From the IMG/VR virus record IMGVR_UViG_2684622775_000005: DNA of 35,878 bases; one strand, given 5' to 3'. Below are positions 3,368 to 10,384 of the stretch, piece after piece. Source of the DNA: a virus. Taxonomy: Duplodnaviria; Heunggongvirae; Uroviricota; Caudoviricetes. How positions within the stretch are numbered: the stretch's first letter is position 1; every line of letters starts with the position of its first letter. The notes under the pieces were generated by a model. It worked only from the letters and a program-made list of their open reading frames with translations. It was not told the origin of the DNA and did no database searches. The position numbers and the translations under genes are program-made.

Positions 3368-3669
3368 TGTCCTGTTCTCGTTCAGTTGTATTACTGAATA
3401 ACGCCTTAAAAATCGCCGTTATGAAAAATGGCGATTTATCTCTTATTCAACTTGGTCTTGATAAAGAAAAACGCGAAATAACTGAGTCTGTTATCGCGAT
3501 TTATCAGAACGAATTAAATCTCCTGTCTGATGTGGTCAATTTACTTGTTAAACGCGCTGTATTTCACAAGAAAATCTCCTCCGTGGATGAACTGACAAAA
3601 TTAACGACAGAAATTGCCAGCTATTGCGCTGATGAATTTAAAAAACTTAACGACAAAAGGAGCTGGTAA
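3364..3669 (+). CDS. early protein (P2 orf81 position)
   Basis: 101-aa ORF, translationally coupled (ATGA overlap). Confidence 0.6.
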
Positions 3670-3893: not shown

Positions 3894-4165
3894 GTATTCG
3901 TATTGAAATTGGCGAACGTTATGTCGTTACCAGTGACAGCTTTCAGTTTATTCTCCACGAGAAAAAGAGAGCGGAAAGCGGTAAAAACGCCGGTCAGGAA
4001 TGGCTGGCGGTGGTTGGTTATTACCCGAAATTAAGCCAGCTCGTTTCCGGCCTGATGCATCACGATATTCTGACCGGAAGCGCAAAATCTTTTGCTGATT
4101 TAAACGCGCAGGTTGAGCAACTCAGCAAGCGTTGTTCAGAGGCTTTTGGCTCACATGGACGTTAA
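3890..4165 (+). CDS. early protein (P2 orf83 position)
   Basis: 91-aa ORF, coupled to neighbours. Confidence 0.6.
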   Translation: MSIRIEIGERYVVTSDSFQFILHEKKRAESGKNAGQEWLAVVGYYPKLSQLVSGLMHHDILTGSAKSFADLNAQVEQLSKRCSEAFGSHGR

Positions 4166-6443
4166 AGCCTCCGGGCGTTTTGTCCCTCCGTCAGCATTTG
4201 CCGCAGGCACCGGTAAGACGTTTACCGGTGCTTATGCATGGAACGCGCCACGCGAGGCCGTCGGGCGCGAAAGACCCCTTACACGTGACGAGATGCGTCA
4301 GGTGCAAGGTGTTTTATCCACGATTAACCGCCTGCCTTACTTTTTGCGTTCGCTGTTTACTTCACGCTATGACTACATCCGGCGCAATAAAAGCCCGGTG
4401 CACGGGTTTTATTTCCTCACATCCACTTTTCAGCGTCGTTTATGGCCGCGCATTGAGCGCGTGAATCAGCGCCATGAAATGAACACCGACGCGTCGTTGC
4501 TGTTTCTGGCAGAGCGTGACCACTATGCGCGCCTGCCTGGAATGAATGACAAGGAGCTGAAAAAGTTTGCCGCCCGTATCTCATCGCAGCTTTTCATGAT
4601 GTATGAGGAACTCTGCGATGCATGGGTTGATGCGCATGGTGAAAAAGAATCGCTGTTTACGGATGAGGCGCAGGCTCACCTGTATGGTCATGTTGCTGGC
4701 GCTGCACGTGCTTTCAATATTTCCCCGCTCTACTGGAAAAAATACAGTAAAGGACAGATGACCACGAGGCAGGCATATTCTGCCATTGCCCGTCTGTTTA
4801 ACGATGAGTGGTGGATTAGTCAGCTTAAAGGCCAGCGTATGCGCTGGCATGAGGCGTTACTGATTGCTGTCGGGGAGGTCAATAAAGACCGTTCTCCTTA
4901 TGCCAGTAAACATGCCATTCGTGATGTGCGTGCGCGCCGCCAGGCAAATCTGGAATTTCTTAAATCGTGTGACCTTGAAAACAGGGAAACCGGCGAGCGT
5001 ATCGACCTTATCAGTAAGGTGATGGGCAGTATTTCTAATCCAGAAATTCGCCGGATGGAGCTGATGAACACCATTGCCGGTATTGAGCGTTACGCCGCCG
5101 CAGAGGGTGATTTGGGGATGTTTATCACGCTGACCGCGCCGTCAAAGTATCATCCGACACGTCAGGTCGGAAAAGGCGAAAGTAAAACCGTTCAGCTTAA
5201 TCACGGCTGGAACGATGAGGCATTTAATCCAAAGGATGCGCAGCGTTATCTCTGCCGTATCTGGAGCCTGATGCGCACGGCATTCAAGGATAATGATTTA
5301 CAGGTCTACGGTTTGCGTGTCGTCGAGCCACACCACGACGGAACGCCGCACTGGCATATGATGCTTTTTTGTCATCCACGCCAGCGTAACCAGATTATCG
5401 AAATCATGCGTCGCTATGCGCTCAAAGAGGATGGCGACGAAAGAGGAGCCGCGCGAAACCGTTTTCAGGCAAAACACCTTAACCGGGGCGGTGCTGCGGG
5501 GTATATCGCGAAATACATCTCAAAAAATATCGACGGCTATGCACTGGATGGGCAGCTCGATAACGATACCGGCAGACCGCTGAAAGATACTGCCGCGGCT
5601 GTTACCGCATGGGCGTCAACGTGGCGCATTCCGCAATTTAAAACGGTTGGCCTGCCGACAATGGGGGCTTACCGTGAACTACGCAAATTGCCTCGCGGCG
5701 TCAGCATTGCTGATGAGTTTGACGAGCGCGTCGAGGCTGCACGCGCCGCCGCAGACAGTGGTGATTTTGCGCTGTATATCAGCGCGCAGGGTGGGGCAAA
5801 TGTCCCGCGCGATTGCCAGACTGTCAGGGTTGCCCGTAGCCCGTCGGATGACGTTAACGAGTACGAGGAAGAAGTCGAGAGAGTGGTCGGCATTTACGCG
5901 CCGCATCTCGGCGCGCGTCATATTCATATCACCAGAACGACGGACTGGCGCATTGTTCCGAAAGTGCCGGTCGTTGAGCCTTTGACTTTAAAAAGCGGCA
6001 TCGCCGCGCCTCGGAGTCCTGTCAATAACTGTGGAAAGCCTGCCAGCAGTGATACTTCGTTACTGGCTCCCACGCCTTCTGAACACGCCGCAGCAGTGCT
6101 TAATCTGGTAGATGACGGTGTTATCGAATGGAATGACCCGGAGGTCGTGAGGGCGCTAAGGGGCGCATTAAAACACGACCTAAGAACGCCAAATCGTCAG
6201 CAAAGAAACGGAAGCCCGTTAAAACCGCATGAGATAGCGCCATCGGCCAGACTGACTAGGTCGGAACGAATGCAAATTACCCGTATCCGCGTTGACCTCG
6301 CTCAGAACGGTATCAGGCCGCAGCGATGGGAGCTTGAGGCGCTGGCGCGTGGCGCGACGGTAAAGTTTGACGGACGAAAGTTTATATATCCAATAAGTGG
6401 TGAGTGGAAGCAGTTTTTTAGTGGCTTTGATCTTTTTAAGTAA
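4155..6443 (+). CDS. A: replication initiator A (rolling-circle nickase; ori expected inside the gene)
   Basis: Long ORF at the P2 A position; contains HUH-like motif (EPHHDGTPHWHMMLF) and tyrosine-containing YIAKYISK. ATG at 4155 chosen; the ORF track extends to a TTG at 4113. Confidence 0.9.
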   Translation: MDVKASGRFVPPSAFAAGTGKTFTGAYAWNAPREAVGRERPLTRDEMRQVQGVLSTINRLPYFLRSLFTSRYDYIRRNKSPVHGFYFLTSTFQRRLWPRIERVNQRHEMNTDASLLFLAERDHYARLPGMNDKELKKFAARISSQLFMMYEELCDAWVDAHGEKESLFTDEAQAHLYGHVAGAARAFNISPLYWKKYSKGQMTTRQAYSAIARLFNDEWWISQLKGQRMRWHEALLIAVGEVNKDRSPYASKHAIRDVRARRQANLEFLKSCDLENRETGERIDLISKVMGSISNPEIRRMELMNTIAGIERYAAAEGDLGMFITLTAPSKYHPTRQVGKGESKTVQLNHGWNDEAFNPKDAQRYLCRIWSLMRTAFKDNDLQVYGLRVVEPHHDGTPHWHMMLFCHPRQRNQIIEIMRRYALKEDGDERGAARNRFQAKHLNRGGAAGYIAKYISKNIDGYALDGQLDNDTGRPLKDTAAAVTAWASTWRIPQFKTVGLPTMGAYRELRKLPRGVSIADEFDERVEAARAAADSGDFALYISAQGGANVPRDCQTVRVARSPSDDVNEYEEEVERVVGIYAPHLGARHIHITRTTDWRIVPKVPVVEPLTLKSGIAAPRSPVNNCGKPASSDTSLLAPTPSEHAAAVLNLVDDGVIEWNDPEVVRALRGALKHDLRTPNRQQRNGSPLKPHEIAPSARLTRSERMQITRIRVDLAQNGIRPQRWELEALARGATVKFDGRKFIYPISGEWKQFFSGFDLFK

Positions 6444-6670
6444 TTGTCTTAGAATACCCACGTTACCGCTTGGGAAATCTACCTAGCAATGCTCTTAGTA
6501 TTAGCTTTATACAAAGGGTATAAAGGCTGCCATTGGCAACAATGGTGCCAGCATGGAGATAATCTCATGTTAAGGTTAGTGAATGTACGACAGTACAACC
6601 GCTACCGCTTTGGGCGCTGGGAGACGGTGCGTAAGCACCGTCGTTCTTACCCGAATCGGTAATATGCGGC

Positions 6671-8878
6671 CTAAGCGGTAACATTTACCTCTTCTTCACC
6701 CATCATTGTTAAGTAATGTTTCTCATCACCAGTCATTCTGAATATTTTGTGCAAGAGTTCTAAGTATTTCTCAGGTTCAATATCGCCCATATCTGTTATG
6801 TTTATTGCGTCGGAGTGAGAGCCTCTGTTTATATATCTGTAAAAGGCACGGAAATGGCTGTTATTTTCATCATTTGTTAATTCAGTAAGCTTTGCCTCTA
6901 ATGCGTCAGTTCTATGAACAAATGCAAAGTAATACTCAAGTATATTTCTCATAATATTGGGGATTATTATTTTGTTGATTTTTTTCTCTTTTGCATCTTT
7001 TAATACTTGCCAAAGGGATTGGTATTCATTTTGCACACTTTTTTTATCTATAGCACTAATGGTGCTAAATTCATTTTTGTTTATTCTGCCAAGAAAGTAG
7101 TCACGTTTAAAATTTATTCCTTTTTTAGAGGCGAGTTTTATTAACTCATGGAAGAAATAAAGATTATGGGTGAGGATTATTATTTTTGATGAAATGCCTT
7201 TTTCAATTATGTCATGATGGATCATGGATGCTATGTCGAAAACATAGTTTTGAGATAAACTTGATATAGGATCATCTATAACTATGAGTTTATCACGCAT
7301 ATCAGTATCATTTTCATTTGTTTTACCCTTGCAACATTCTAAAAAATATAGAAACGTTATTAATGTTTTTTCACCTTCGCTTAATGACCGATATACATCT
7401 TGTTTTCTATTGTTTCCATCGCGGGATATTATATACTTATCTTTGAGTTCGGCGTGTTTATCAATGCTAAAACCAGAGATGCCAAGAAATTTAAGTCGTG
7501 AGTTTATTGCATCTATTGTTGCATCTACACTTGATGTTTTATTTCTTGGTTCATTGATTTCATTTGTGTTGATCTCTTCTTTTCTTTTTATTTCCTGCAT
7601 GAAGGATGCAGCGTTTTCATATTTTTCTTGAAAGTTTCTTTCGCAGTCTGATAGTATTTCAAATTCCGCGCTACATAAGTCTCTGATTGCTGCCCACATC
7701 TTTTCGCGAATATCTATTTCGCTATTATTAAATCTTTTTACTTTGTCATTGAACTCGTTAATTTTATTGTTGTATTGTTCTATATCTTCTAATAGTTTTT
7801 CCTCTATCGACTTTTCAAACTCCAGCACAATGCTTATAGATGGATTCTCTATTTTATTATCCAATAGTTTAATGTTTTTTTCTGCAATAGTTTCTAATGC
7901 CTTAACATATGAAAGACTTTTATCTTTTTCGTCTTGGTTTATCACCTCACATGATAAAATGTTACTCTTTATTTCTTCATGATGATTTTTAATGGCATTA
8001 TCATAAGATAGTTTTATTTGTTGTATTTGATCTACTTTTCTTGAGTATGTTTCATCAAAGATAGATTCAATGGCTTTAATAAAATTATCATCTATTGTGT
8101 CCCTTTGGCAAAATGGACAAATTTCTCCATTTAAATATAGCTCTTTGCCTTGTTTAATCCAATCAATATTTTGTAGCTCTTTTATTGCTTCAGATAAATA
8201 GCTGTTGCTAGAGTCAATAATTGGTGTGGATAATGTTTTTTGAGTTTCTTCAGATAAAACATATCCTTTATAAGGAGTTATCAGAGGTATTTCTTTTCCT
8301 TTAAACTCGAGAAGTTTGCTATAAGATTGTATTAATGATTTTATATCAATATCAGTTTGTGGAGTATACTTTTTTAGATGGTAATAGAAAGTGGCTTTGC
8401 TTCCTATTTGACCTTTCATTAATTGTTTTAATTCTGAACTTCTTATGTCTTTGGTCTTATTCCATATGGAATTTATGCATTCTTGCTCTTTTTTGTTTTT
8501 CGCTTCATGGAGTTTTTCGATAAATTCTTTTTTTTCTTTATGCTGATGTGCTAGTGATTTGTTTAGCTCTTCTTTTTCAGATAGTATTTTTTCAATTTCT
8601 GCATTTTTTTGACTGAGGGTAAATATACCTTTTTGCTCTTTTGCATTATAAAAATTATCTTCTATATATTTTGAGTTGTAGACTAGGGTTCGATAATTAT
8701 CGATGGGTTCGCATACACATTCCTTATAGGCGGTGTCTTTAGGATTGTAAAAATAATTTGATATGGTAGATTTTCCACAACCATTTTGTCCATACAATAT
8801 GTTTATTTTTTTGGATAAATCTAACTCAGTAAAATATTCTTTATGATAGCTTGTTACGTTTTTGAGTTTTAATTTCAT
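6671..8878 (-). CDS. cargo gene at the tin/old position: RloC/PrrC-like (AAA_13-type) ATPase with CPFC hook motif and possible C-terminal nuclease; candidate abortive-infection protein
   Basis: 735 aa, strongly AT-rich. Walker A GQNGCGKST near the N-terminus; Lys/Glu-rich coiled-coil-like insert containing CPFC; ABC-signature-like LSEGEKT; Walker B KLIVIDDP; H-loop-like IIILTHN; C-terminal RNILE...H arrangement. Shine-Dalgarno AGAGGG upstream of the ATG. Family assignment is from motif recognition, not a search. Confidence 0.8.
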   Translation of the reverse strand: MKLKLKNVTSYHKEYFTELDLSKKINILYGQNGCGKSTISNYFYNPKDTAYKECVCEPIDNYRTLVYNSKYIEDNFYNAKEQKGIFTLSQKNAEIEKILSEKEELNKSLAHQHKEKKEFIEKLHEAKNKKEQECINSIWNKTKDIRSSELKQLMKGQIGSKATFYYHLKKYTPQTDIDIKSLIQSYSKLLEFKGKEIPLITPYKGYVLSEETQKTLSTPIIDSSNSYLSEAIKELQNIDWIKQGKELYLNGEICPFCQRDTIDDNFIKAIESIFDETYSRKVDQIQQIKLSYDNAIKNHHEEIKSNILSCEVINQDEKDKSLSYVKALETIAEKNIKLLDNKIENPSISIVLEFEKSIEEKLLEDIEQYNNKINEFNDKVKRFNNSEIDIREKMWAAIRDLCSAEFEILSDCERNFQEKYENAASFMQEIKRKEEINTNEINEPRNKTSSVDATIDAINSRLKFLGISGFSIDKHAELKDKYIISRDGNNRKQDVYRSLSEGEKTLITFLYFLECCKGKTNENDTDMRDKLIVIDDPISSLSQNYVFDIASMIHHDIIEKGISSKIIILTHNLYFFHELIKLASKKGINFKRDYFLGRINKNEFSTISAIDKKSVQNEYQSLWQVLKDAKEKKINKIIIPNIMRNILEYYFAFVHRTDALEAKLTELTNDENNSHFRAFYRYINRGSHSDAINITDMGDIEPEKYLELLHKIFRMTGDEKHYLTMMGEEEVNVTA

Positions 8879-9164
8879 TTTATCCCTCTTTTTATTCTTT
8901 TTATATTTAGCCTTAAGTGTTCGAGGTTGCCTTCCTCAACGATAGAGATCTAACCTAACTTTTTGATTTATTCAAGAGAATTTAGTGAGTTATATGTAAA
9001 GATGTGGATGCTTAGCTATGTGGTTGGGGGTTATTTCAGTATGAATTCATTTGATGCATCATTTTGCATGTACCTGTTAGGCATTTTCTAACTTTGCAGT
9101 GTCAGAACTGGCGTACTTTAGGCCATTCATGCAAGTGCATTAAAACCGCCCCATTAAGCGGGCG

Positions 9165-9183
9165 GGCGAGGCGGGGAAAGCAC
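9165..9183. other. cos (cohesive-end site)
   Basis: GGCGAGGCGGGGAAAGCAC matches the recalled 19-nt P2 cohesive end; located between the cargo island and Q as in P2. Confidence 0.8.
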
Positions 9184-9349: not shown

Positions 9350-10384
9350 TCAGTCGTTGTCAGTGTCCAGTGAGTAGTTTTTAAAGCGGATGACCTCCTG
9401 ACCGAGCCAGCCGTTTATCTCGCGGATCCTGTCCTGTAACGGGATAAGCTCATTGCGGACAAAGACCTTTGCCACTTTCTCAATATCACCCAGCGACCCG
9501 ACGTTCTCCGGCTTGCCACCCATCAACTGAAAGGGGATGCGGTGCGCGTCCAGCAGGTCAGCGGCGCTGGCTTTTTTGATATTAAAAAAATCGTCCTTCG
9601 TCGCCACTTCACTGAGGGGGATAATTTTAATGCCGTCGGCTTTCCCCTGTGGGGCATAGAGAAACAGGTTTTTAAAGTTGTTGCGGCCTTTCGACTTGAC
9701 CATGTTTTCGCGAAGCATTTCGATATCGTTGCGATCCTGCACGGCATCGGTGACGTACATGATGTATCCGGCATGAGCGCCATTTTCGTAATACTTTCGG
9801 CGGAACAGCGTGGCCGACTCATTCAGCCAGGCAGAATTAAGGGCGCTGAGATATTCCGGCAGGCCGTACAACTCCTGATTAATATCCGGCTCCAGCAGGT
9901 GAAACACGGAGCCGGGCGTGAAGGCTGTCGGCTCGTTGAAGGACGGTACCCACCAGTAAACATCCTCCTCCACGCCACGGCGGGTATATTTTGCCGGTGA
10001 GGTTTCCAGTCTGATGACCTTACCGGTGGTGCTGTAACGCTTTTCCAGAAACGCATTACCGAACACCAGAAAATCCAGCACAAAACGGCTGAAATCCTGC
10101 TGGGAAAGCCACGGGTGCGGGATAAACGTTGAAGCCAGAATATTACGTTTGACGTAAATCGGTGAGCTGTGATGCACGGCAGCACGCAGGCTTTTTGCCA
10201 GACCGGTAAAGCTGACCGGCGGCTCATACCATCTGCCGTTACTGATGCACTCGACGTAATCCAGAATGTCACGGCGGTCGAGTACCGGCACCGGCTCGCC
10301 AAAGGTGAATGCTTCCATTTTCGGGGCGCTGGCGGTGATTGTTTTTGCCGCAGGTCGCGGTGTTTTCCCTTTTTTCTTGCTCAT
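9350..10384 (-). CDS. Q: portal protein Q (344 aa)
   Basis: Size and position match P2 Q; start overlaps the P stop. Confidence 0.95.
   Translation of the reverse strand: MSKKKGKTPRPAAKTITASAPKMEAFTFGEPVPVLDRRDILDYVECISNGRWYEPPVSFTGLAKSLRAAVHHSSPIYVKRNILASTFIPHPWLSQQDFSRFVLDFLVFGNAFLEKRYSTTGKVIRLETSPAKYTRRGVEEDVYWWVPSFNEPTAFTPGSVFHLLEPDINQELYGLPEYLSALNSAWLNESATLFRRKYYENGAHAGYIMYVTDAVQDRNDIEMLRENMVKSKGRNNFKNLFLYAPQGKADGIKIIPLSEVATKDDFFNIKKASAADLLDAHRIPFQLMGGKPENVGSLGDIEKVAKVFVRNELIPLQDRIREINGWLGQEVIRFKNYSLDTDND

Follow-up and report, generated by a model that had tools for sequence, protein, structure and literature searches.

The window analysed here, the whole 35,878-nucleotide stretch of IMG/VR record IMGVR_UViG_2684622775_000005, is a P2-like prophage, and the island considered is the segment 6444–9164, which lies between the homologue of P2 gene A, ending at 6443, and the P2-type cos site at 9165–9183, with the portal gene Q at 9350–10384. 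A preliminary description, made from the sequence alone, had placed this island in the P2 anti-phage hotspot, as is confirmed by these boundaries and by the hotspot of Rousset et al. 2022, and had given its content as one AT-rich minus-strand gene of 735 codons at 6671–8878, single and stand-alone, with its own Shine-Dalgarno (SD) sequence. The gene, which is open from an ATG and has a coding-sequence GC content of 0.301, and its SD sequence are present as described, however the island also holds a second conserved gene of 31 codons on the plus strand, and this small gene, which lies on a structured RNA, shows genetic linkage with the clade of the ATPase that the large gene encodes. We read the island as a two-part abortive-infection RNase module in the P2 A–cos hotspot, and give this reading a probability of about 60%. 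The main features of the island are as follows.

6671–8878, minus strand: 735-residue ABC(Rad50-like)-HEPN-type ATPase, WP_028132552.1 "AAA family ATPase" (open reading frame (ORF); Pfam, PADLOC, PHROG and AlphaFold2)
6567–6662, plus strand: conserved small gene of 31 codons and a stop, product MLRLVNVRQYNRYRFGRWETVRKHRRSYPNR, PHROG 21154 with no function assigned (substitution pattern, ratio of nonsynonymous to synonymous substitution rates (dN/dS), tblastn and PHROG)
6459–6682, plus strand: structured RNA of ~220 nt carrying the small gene, with inferred ends (covariation and folding)

The small gene, its RNA and their linkage to the ATPase

The 227 bp between the stop of gene A and the stop of the ATPase gene (6444–6670) are present in 94 of 5,426 E. 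coli genomes at 80–100% identity, with the ATPase genes that adjoin segments of this type far more diverged (protein identities of 51–64%, DNA identities no higher than 71%). Alignment of the variants places substitutions at every third base of the 31-codon frame and shows that the position of its stop is kept, with GGAG found 8 nt before the ATG. The frame is intact in all 29 sequences compared (the window and 28 loci; 27 distinct), at a length of 30–39 codons, with 14, 12, and 26 of 27 columns variable at codon positions 1, 2, and 3 respectively, mean pairwise differences of 4.8, 4.6, and 15.1 at these positions, and a dN/dS (Nei-Gojobori method, NG86) of about 0.13. The peptide matches PHROG 21154 with an E value of 1.5e-9, is hydrophilic and very basic (9 Arg in 31 residues), and is far better conserved than the ATPase in each pair compared, with identities of 97% versus 61%, 81% versus 44%, and 59–66% versus 40%. 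Database entries for it, found on at least 1,000 contigs, read only "hypothetical" or "uncharacterised" protein, and no coding sequence is annotated at this spot in the five RefSeq records inspected; Pfam returned nothing for the 31-residue peptide, and NCBIfam holds no specific model for it. A longer reading of 57 residues from the ATG at 6489 was rejected on account of in-frame stops in its upstream part in loci L003, L005, and other copies, and gave a chance-level Pfam match only (E = 0.14).

The RNA that carries the small gene folds back on itself, with its 5′ and 3′ arms paired in a closing helix, and is composed of the following elements.

6427–6455, plus strand: sigma-70-like promoter TTGATC-17-TAGAAT, a few bases 5′ of the P1 arm, with the −35 hexamer overlapping the end of gene A (consensus scan)
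6462–6474 with 6670–6682, plus strand: closing helix P1, in which GTTACCGCTTGGG pairs with CCTAAGCGGTAAC
6505–6525, plus strand: hairpin P2
6529–6546, plus strand: hairpin P3
6555–6558, plus strand: SD sequence GGAG of the small gene; SD and AUG lie inside a weaker hairpin
6670–6682: overlap in which the 3′ arm of P1, CCTAAGCGGTAAC on the plus strand, is complementary to the end of the ATPase gene, its final codons with the stop (GTT ACC GCT TAG, V T A stop; read from the sequence)

Covariation was assessed on a 22-sequence alignment, with 500 shuffles and slid-partner controls. In P1, 11 of 15 pairs have changed on both sides and 87.7% of positions are paired, whereas the corresponding values for P2 are 3 pairs changed on both sides and 98.9% paired; the structure as a whole is 84.5% paired versus 33–50% with slid partners, and none of the 500 shuffles reaches the observed values. 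In 17 of 17 sequences P3 is formed, by letters that differ between them. The hairpin holding the SD sequence and AUG (68.9% paired) is supported only in sub-clades, and a hairpin within the ORF, GACGGTGC/GCACCGTC (76% paired), is likewise conserved only in sub-clades. The RNA is assigned to the strand of the small gene because mismatches in the helices become G-U pairs on the plus strand, with which folding agrees (minimum free energy −98.9 kcal/mol and z = −7.7 for the plus strand, −76.9 kcal/mol and z = −4.2 for the minus strand). In the position of the promoter, the copies from E. coli, Serratia, and Pantoea have comparable −35 and −10 hexamers as read by eye, and those from Pseudomonas a TAGCAT-like −10 hexamer.

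The C-termini of many ATPase homologues from enterobacteria read (V/A)TA-stop, with acidic residues (EEE...) preceding. As these codons form the 3′ arm of P1 on the other strand, the C-terminus of the ATPase and the RNA helix constrain each other.

Part of this RNA (6503–6574, plus strand, over P2, P3, and the SD region) matches the Rfam family RT-6 (RF03027) with 23.1 bits against a gathering score of 46.7. Identity with RT-6 was rejected, the match being below threshold, with no matches in 8 related loci and no reverse transcriptase gene; the 4 matches obtained when viral contigs were scanned with the RT-6 consensus core lie, on reading, in unrelated, apparently coding DNA, with none having an Rfam match, and no literature on RT-6 was found.

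Fold-back mRNAs of the hok/sok type carry a short ORF on a compact structured mRNA with paired 5′ and 3′ ends and a sequestered SD sequence or start codon. The small gene resembles these in lying on a fold-back mRNA with paired ends and with SD and AUG in secondary structure, however its product is a hydrophilic, Arg-rich protein rather than a membrane peptide, and the element is linked to a putative RNase gene. Membership of the hok-like type I toxin-antitoxin class, in which a small hydrophobic toxin is paired with an antisense RNA encoded in cis or in trans, was rejected from the character of the peptide, the fold-back mRNA being the sole shared feature.

Linkage was followed from both sides. 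With the small gene beside ATPase homologues detected by tblastn, it adjoins the 3′ end of the ATPase gene in 11 of 11 contexts of homologues of at least 39% identity, drawn from E. coli, Serratia, Pantoea, Pectobacterium, and Morganella and lying in some cases in P2-like prophages and in several in unrelated islands. Searching from the peptide, 100,044 species genomes gave 20 loci, 17 of them with the ATPase adjacent, and IMG/VR gave 28 loci, 22 of them with the ATPase adjacent, or 22 of 26 evaluable loci, two of the 28 being cut by contig ends. This amounts to adjacency in 50 of 57 evaluable contexts, spanning Enterobacterales and Pseudomonas, P2 and non-P2 settings, and three relative orientations, with the two genes convergent in Enterobacterales, in tandem in Pseudomonas (ATPase upstream, at ~300 bp), and divergent in one case.

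Two of these loci show further features. In a P2-like prophage of E. coli RM14723 (L003, 3935–7433), gene A is separated from the small-gene element by an inserted IS481 transposase, and the annotation gives the ATPase as frameshifted, so that the cassette is in decay in this copy. In Halopseudomonas pelagia (L018), two strong matches to the radC RNA motif (RF01754, 83 and 107 bits) at 291–441 and 4514–4659 flank the pair of ATPase and small gene.

The ATPase and its known relatives

The ATPase gene carries the following features.

8884–8888, minus strand: SD sequence GAGGG, 5 nt before the ATG (read from the sequence)
8765–8791, minus strand: Walker A GQNGCGKST, residues 30–38, with K36 (G30 and K36 in 148 of 148 sequences)
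8108–8119, minus strand: CPFC, residues 254–257, candidate zinc-hook motif inside a helical insert at residues ~90–447 (C254, P255, and C257 in 148 of 148)
7163–7384, minus strand: C-terminal half of the ABC head, with LSEGEKT (residues 499–505), Walker B LIVIDDP (531–537), and H-loop ILTHN (568–572) (S500, E503, D535, D536, and H571 in 148 of 148)
6695–7036, minus strand: all-helical C-terminal domain, residues ~615–728, putative HEPN-type RNase, with N641, R644, E648, S687-H688, and H721

The protein matches Pfam AAA_13 (PF13166) over its full length (E = 9.6e-103, 345.6 bits against a cut-off of 36), with residues 16–713 aligned to positions 9–712 of the 713-position profile, and PADLOC model PDC-S06 with residues 2–728 on positions 4–724 of 727 (E = 4.2e-254). 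The PADLOC PrrC model also matches (E = 4e-16), confined to residues 481–716. It belongs to PHROG 2801, with no function assigned, and NCBIfam holds no specific model for it. The family comprises 9,253 clusters at 50% identity at E ≤ 1e-3, and 2,837 at E ≤ 1e-30, and more than 150 are full-length relatives of ~720–750 residues. No TOPRIM or other effector domain was found in Pfam or PADLOC searches beyond generic ATPase similarity (AriA, E = 9e-5), and none of the PD-T4, PD-T7, or PD-lambda models of Vassallo et al. 2022 is among the PADLOC matches. A search of the PDB with the single protein returned nothing, and a profile search only SMC and Rad50 heads and coiled coils.

The AlphaFold2 model (predicted local distance difference test score, pLDDT, of 82) shows an ABC head, with long helices at residues 90–141 and 403–447 bracketing the helical insert, and an all-helical C-terminal domain at about residues 618–725. 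The best structural match of the full-length model is Rad50 (E ~1e-6), followed by SMC, Lamassu LmuB, retron/Septu PtuA, and AriA heads; a fold search with the C-terminal domain gave weak matches. Within this domain N641, R644, and H721 are invariant in 148 of 148 diverse sequences, whereas 147 retain H688 and 145 retain E648, which is replaced by Asp in the remaining three. Judged from the PrrC profile match and the literature, R644, E648, and H688 appear to be the counterparts of the anticodon-nuclease triad of PrrC and RloC, and membership of the HEPN superfamily, to which Anantharaman et al. 2013 assigned the nuclease domains of both proteins, is plausible.

Much of this had been anticipated. 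The preliminary description had named AAA_13 and a layout of the RloC and PrrC kind (a split ABC ATPase, a long helical insert with CxxC, and a small C-terminal nuclease-like R/E/H domain), and both are upheld by the searches above, as are the motifs it quoted, at residues 30, 254, 499, 531, 568, and 643, and the Lys/Glu-rich character of the insert (Lys and Glu make up 27% of residues 90–449). Its R-x3-E element is R644-x3-E648, in MRNILEY at residue 643, however the His it placed about 30 residues further on needs correction, with the conserved H688 lying 40 residues past E648, and the nearer H655 outside the conserved columns. Its label "RloC/PrrC-like" holds for RloC and fails for PrrC.

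By every sequence-level criterion tested, the ATPase would be classed as an RloC-type ABC-HEPN protein. Its likeness to GkaRloC of Geobacillus kaustophilus (COG4694, "wobble nucleotide-excising tRNase") is one of motif features and gene setting: the Lys of Walker A (K36, with K44 in GkaRloC), a long helical insert that separates Walker A from the signature and holds a CxxC (C254/C257, with C291 in GkaRloC), the Asp of Walker B (D535/D536, with D572 in GkaRloC), the C-terminal R/E/H domain, and the lack of linkage to restriction-modification (R-M) genes. Homologues at 28–31% identity are labelled RloC by the Joint Genome Institute (JGI). RloC cuts out the tRNA wobble nucleotide, and its ATPase is stimulated by DNA ends. 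The ATPase differs from RloC in its place in a P2 prophage hotspot and in the adjoining small gene on a structured RNA found in 11 of 11 contexts of its clade, which is undescribed for RloC.

PrrC of the E. coli prr locus shares with the ATPase a homologous C-terminal half of the ABC head and nuclease domain, as well as the R/E/H triad, and both are proposed abortive-infection RNases. In contrast to the 735-residue ATPase with its ~360-residue insert, PrrC is compact, at about 400 residues, and lacks a coiled-coil/hook insert; it is also always found within a type Ic R-M (hsd/prr) locus, is silenced by that system, and is triggered by T4 Stp. The ATPase is thus not of the PrrC type because the insert is present, R-M linkage is absent, and the PrrC profile is limited to residues 481–716. 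In the window no R-M or hsd genes lie near the ATPase, the neighbours being P2 gene A and cos/Q, and no hsd genes are found among the called genes at the other ATPase contexts. OLD, Gabija GajA, and PARIS differ in their TOPRIM nuclease domain, whether fused or adjacent, the C-terminal domain here being helical.

Closer relatives have been catalogued. Anantharaman et al. 2013 described a further group of ABC-HEPN fusions, of type APECO1_4465, frequent in integrated prophages, and predicted that it blocks other phages independently of R-M systems. APEC O1 carries, at the same P2 site, a gene with 100% nucleotide identity to that of locus L002, the protein of which is 58% identical to that of the window, and we take this gene, by inference, to be APECO1_4465. 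System #5 of the P2 A-Q hotspot in Rousset et al. 2022 is "AAA_13", annotated there as "RloC-like" (Table S5B) and counted 420 times in 18,150 P2 hotspot loci (about 2%), and their representative sequence is visibly homologous to the window protein. A 2025 preprint considers an E. coli AAA-ATPase called PDC-S06 by PADLOC a probable true defence protein, named without a test, and Vassallo et al. 2022 make no mention of such a protein. The APECO1_4465-type proteins, PDC-S06, and system #5 share with the ATPase their family and prophage setting, with the PDC-S06 model matching its full length, however in these sources the system consists of one gene, and neither a partner gene nor an RNA is described. 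The ATPase as first described is therefore essentially in the catalogues already and on its own is ordinary, an RloC-like candidate at a well-known hotspot; what is added here is the linked small gene and RNA beside it.

A possible two-part module and its alternatives

The proposed module has two parts, an ABC-HEPN protein that, by analogy with its relatives, would probably act as an RNase in defence, and a small gene that is probably coupled to it in function. By analogy with RloC, the ATPase and hook region would hold the C-terminal RNase off until infection is sensed, for example as DNA ends or damage together with ATP. The C-terminal domain, which would be a metal-independent RNase as in RloC and PrrC, would then be freed to cut tRNA anticodon loops or other RNA, such that translation stops and the infection is aborted. 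Analogy gives the anticodon loop even odds of being the target. For the 31-residue basic protein, a role as regulator of the RNase, as a continuously made silencer or as an adaptor, is the preferred guess, and a role specifically as negative regulator is put forward only tentatively. A regulatory partner is favoured because PrrC needs an external silencer, EcoprrI, and the present clade has no R-M partner. Furthermore, strong conservation of the peptide beside a fast-evolving enzyme suggests that the peptide contacts something conserved, be it the active site, tRNA, the ribosome, or a protease.

Several observations weigh against this reading. RloC acts without a partner, and a basic peptide makes no obvious mimic of RNA with which to inhibit an RNase. 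The canonical HEPN motif is Rx4-6H, and an R681-x6-H688 is present here, but R681 is kept in only 63 of 148 sequences, with the invariant R644 sitting on another helix. The ends of the RNA and the place of the ATPase promoter are presumed. System #5 was not among the systems cloned and tested by Rousset et al. 2022, and no functional test of the ATPase clade or PDC-S06 was found in the literature searched. Additionally, the small gene is absent beside two distant ATPase homologues (31% and 29% identity), and it occurs without this ATPase in about 7 loci (L015, L021, L026, L053, L054, L057, and L059).

In Pantoea sp. Mb-10 (L015, 2842–4804) the small gene lies between an HNH_5 protein of 335 residues and a convergent 216-residue protein that matches PADLOC "RTasHEPN" (E = 2.8e-8), a different RNase-type partner, and in L021 it is followed by a 210-residue protein of no assigned family; hhalign of the ATPase profile against these two neighbours gave no similarity. 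A general rule that the small gene pairs with HEPN proteins was not upheld, since it rests only on the RTasHEPN match in L015. The remaining five loci (match at ~3501–3590 or 4001–4090) are Neisseriaceae-type prophages with a Cys-rich variant of 39–40 residues (MTCNCNCTG...WEIVCTHCRSLP..), which directly follows a pair of helix-turn-helix (HTH; Xre-like) and M78 peptidase genes resembling CapH/CapP, with no ABC-HEPN gene there. The extra Cys and His residues of this variant suggest a zinc-binding mini-protein.

Such loci, together with the distant family members that lack the small gene, are what would be expected were the ATPase truly a stand-alone RloC-like abortive-infection gene, as the preliminary description had proposed, with the small gene and RNA as an independent neighbour that plays no part in the activity of the ATPase, for example an element for addiction or stabilisation, or a moron that hitch-hikes at the border of the cassette and marks it. 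GkaRloC is controlled by a switch of its own and works without a partner, and the GC content of the small-gene element (0.48) compared with that of the ATPase gene (0.30) suggests separate histories. Nevertheless, we regard an independent neighbour as rather improbable, given that the two genes stay adjacent in 50 of 57 evaluable contexts, in three orientations and both P2 and non-P2 settings, and that the enterobacterial form builds the closing helix of the RNA from the last codons of the ATPase gene.

A second alternative reverses the roles, with the small basic protein as effector or toxin and its mRNA held inert, hok-like, by the closing helix and by pairing of the SD sequence and AUG, until the ABC-HEPN RNase, once activated by infection, opens it by cleavage and the peptide is made. 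The fold-back architecture with its strong covariation, the placement of SD and AUG in a hairpin of the window RNA, and the predicted RNase nature of the partners of the small gene accord with such a scheme, as do the Neisseriaceae prophages, in which the small gene, alone behind CapH/CapP-like pairs, could be regulated cargo. However, the hydrophilic, Arg-rich peptide is unlike typical type I toxins, the SD hairpin is conserved in part only, and the invariant R/E/H triad is matched in enzymes that need only their own cleavage of tRNA to kill, such that this scheme is quite improbable. Action of the ATPase on DNA, in the manner of the Rad50/SMC-type defence ATPases (Lamassu, Wadjet, and Septu) and with the C-terminal domain as a dimerisation or regulatory module, would suit the best full-length structural matches (Rad50, SMC, LmuB, and PtuA) and the weak fold matches of that domain, but is very improbable in view of the (near-)invariant R644, E648, and H688 and their correspondence to the PrrC/RloC triad, the reach of the PrrC profile into the C-terminal domain, and the absence of a DNA nuclease domain or partner gene.

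Within the two-part reading, a stronger form, which we consider unlikely, would have the widespread ABC-HEPN (PDC-S06) clade depend on the small gene and its fold-back RNA as an obligatory partner, and has two versions. In the first, the RNA would be a message kept locked until the RNase, activated by infection, cuts it open and an Arg-rich effector peptide is released; in the second, the peptide would be a highly conserved silencer or adaptor through which the RNase is tied to a conserved target in the host, for instance tRNA or the ribosome. Were either true, PrrC/RloC-type nucleases would have a principle of control that we have not found described, and single-gene PDC-S06 clones would misreport activity.

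The two-part reading itself bears on a common clade, found in ~2% of P2 hotspot loci and set within a wider family of thousands of 50%-identity clusters, which databases list as a single-gene system and which appears to be a two-gene module. Cloning of the large ORF alone may thus yield toxic or inactive constructs, and the pair offers a testable handle on how partner-less suicide RNases of the PrrC/RloC type stay silent and then switch on.

Genomic setting

A copy of the window with 99.9% identity is present in E. coli STW0522-31 beside yegR, with the gene order integrase, C, cox, ..., A (replication endonuclease), WP_028132552.1, portal Q, and terminase P. A Peptidase_U32 gene lies at the end of the window (34517–35878, minus strand), and this, together with yegS/yegR adjoining the integrase in locus L001, places the prophage at the chromosomal site beside yegR. 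A megablast search of the phage collection gave no match. Two further features mark the right-hand end of the island.

9165–9183, plus strand: P2-type cos 19-mer GGCGAGGCGGGGAAAGCAC, right boundary of the hotspot (read from the sequence)
8879–9164, minus strand: AT-rich leader between cos and the ATPase start, GC 0.374, presumed place of the ATPase promoter

The cos core is also present in the cloned P4 sequences of Rousset et al. 2022 (Table S2A). GC content falls to ~0.28–0.31 over 6800–9000, compared with 0.52–0.59 in the flanks and 0.504 over the whole window. The leader is not conserved among ATPase gene variants of 71% identity, and a consensus scan of the minus strand within it returned no consensus promoter.

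A second variable locus of P2 lies at 25213–27140, beyond H and G, the tail-fibre genes, at the place of Z/fun in P2. It contains a 242-residue ORF without a Pfam or PADLOC match and a convergent DUF5677 protein of 256 residues, which may be further accessory or defence cargo.

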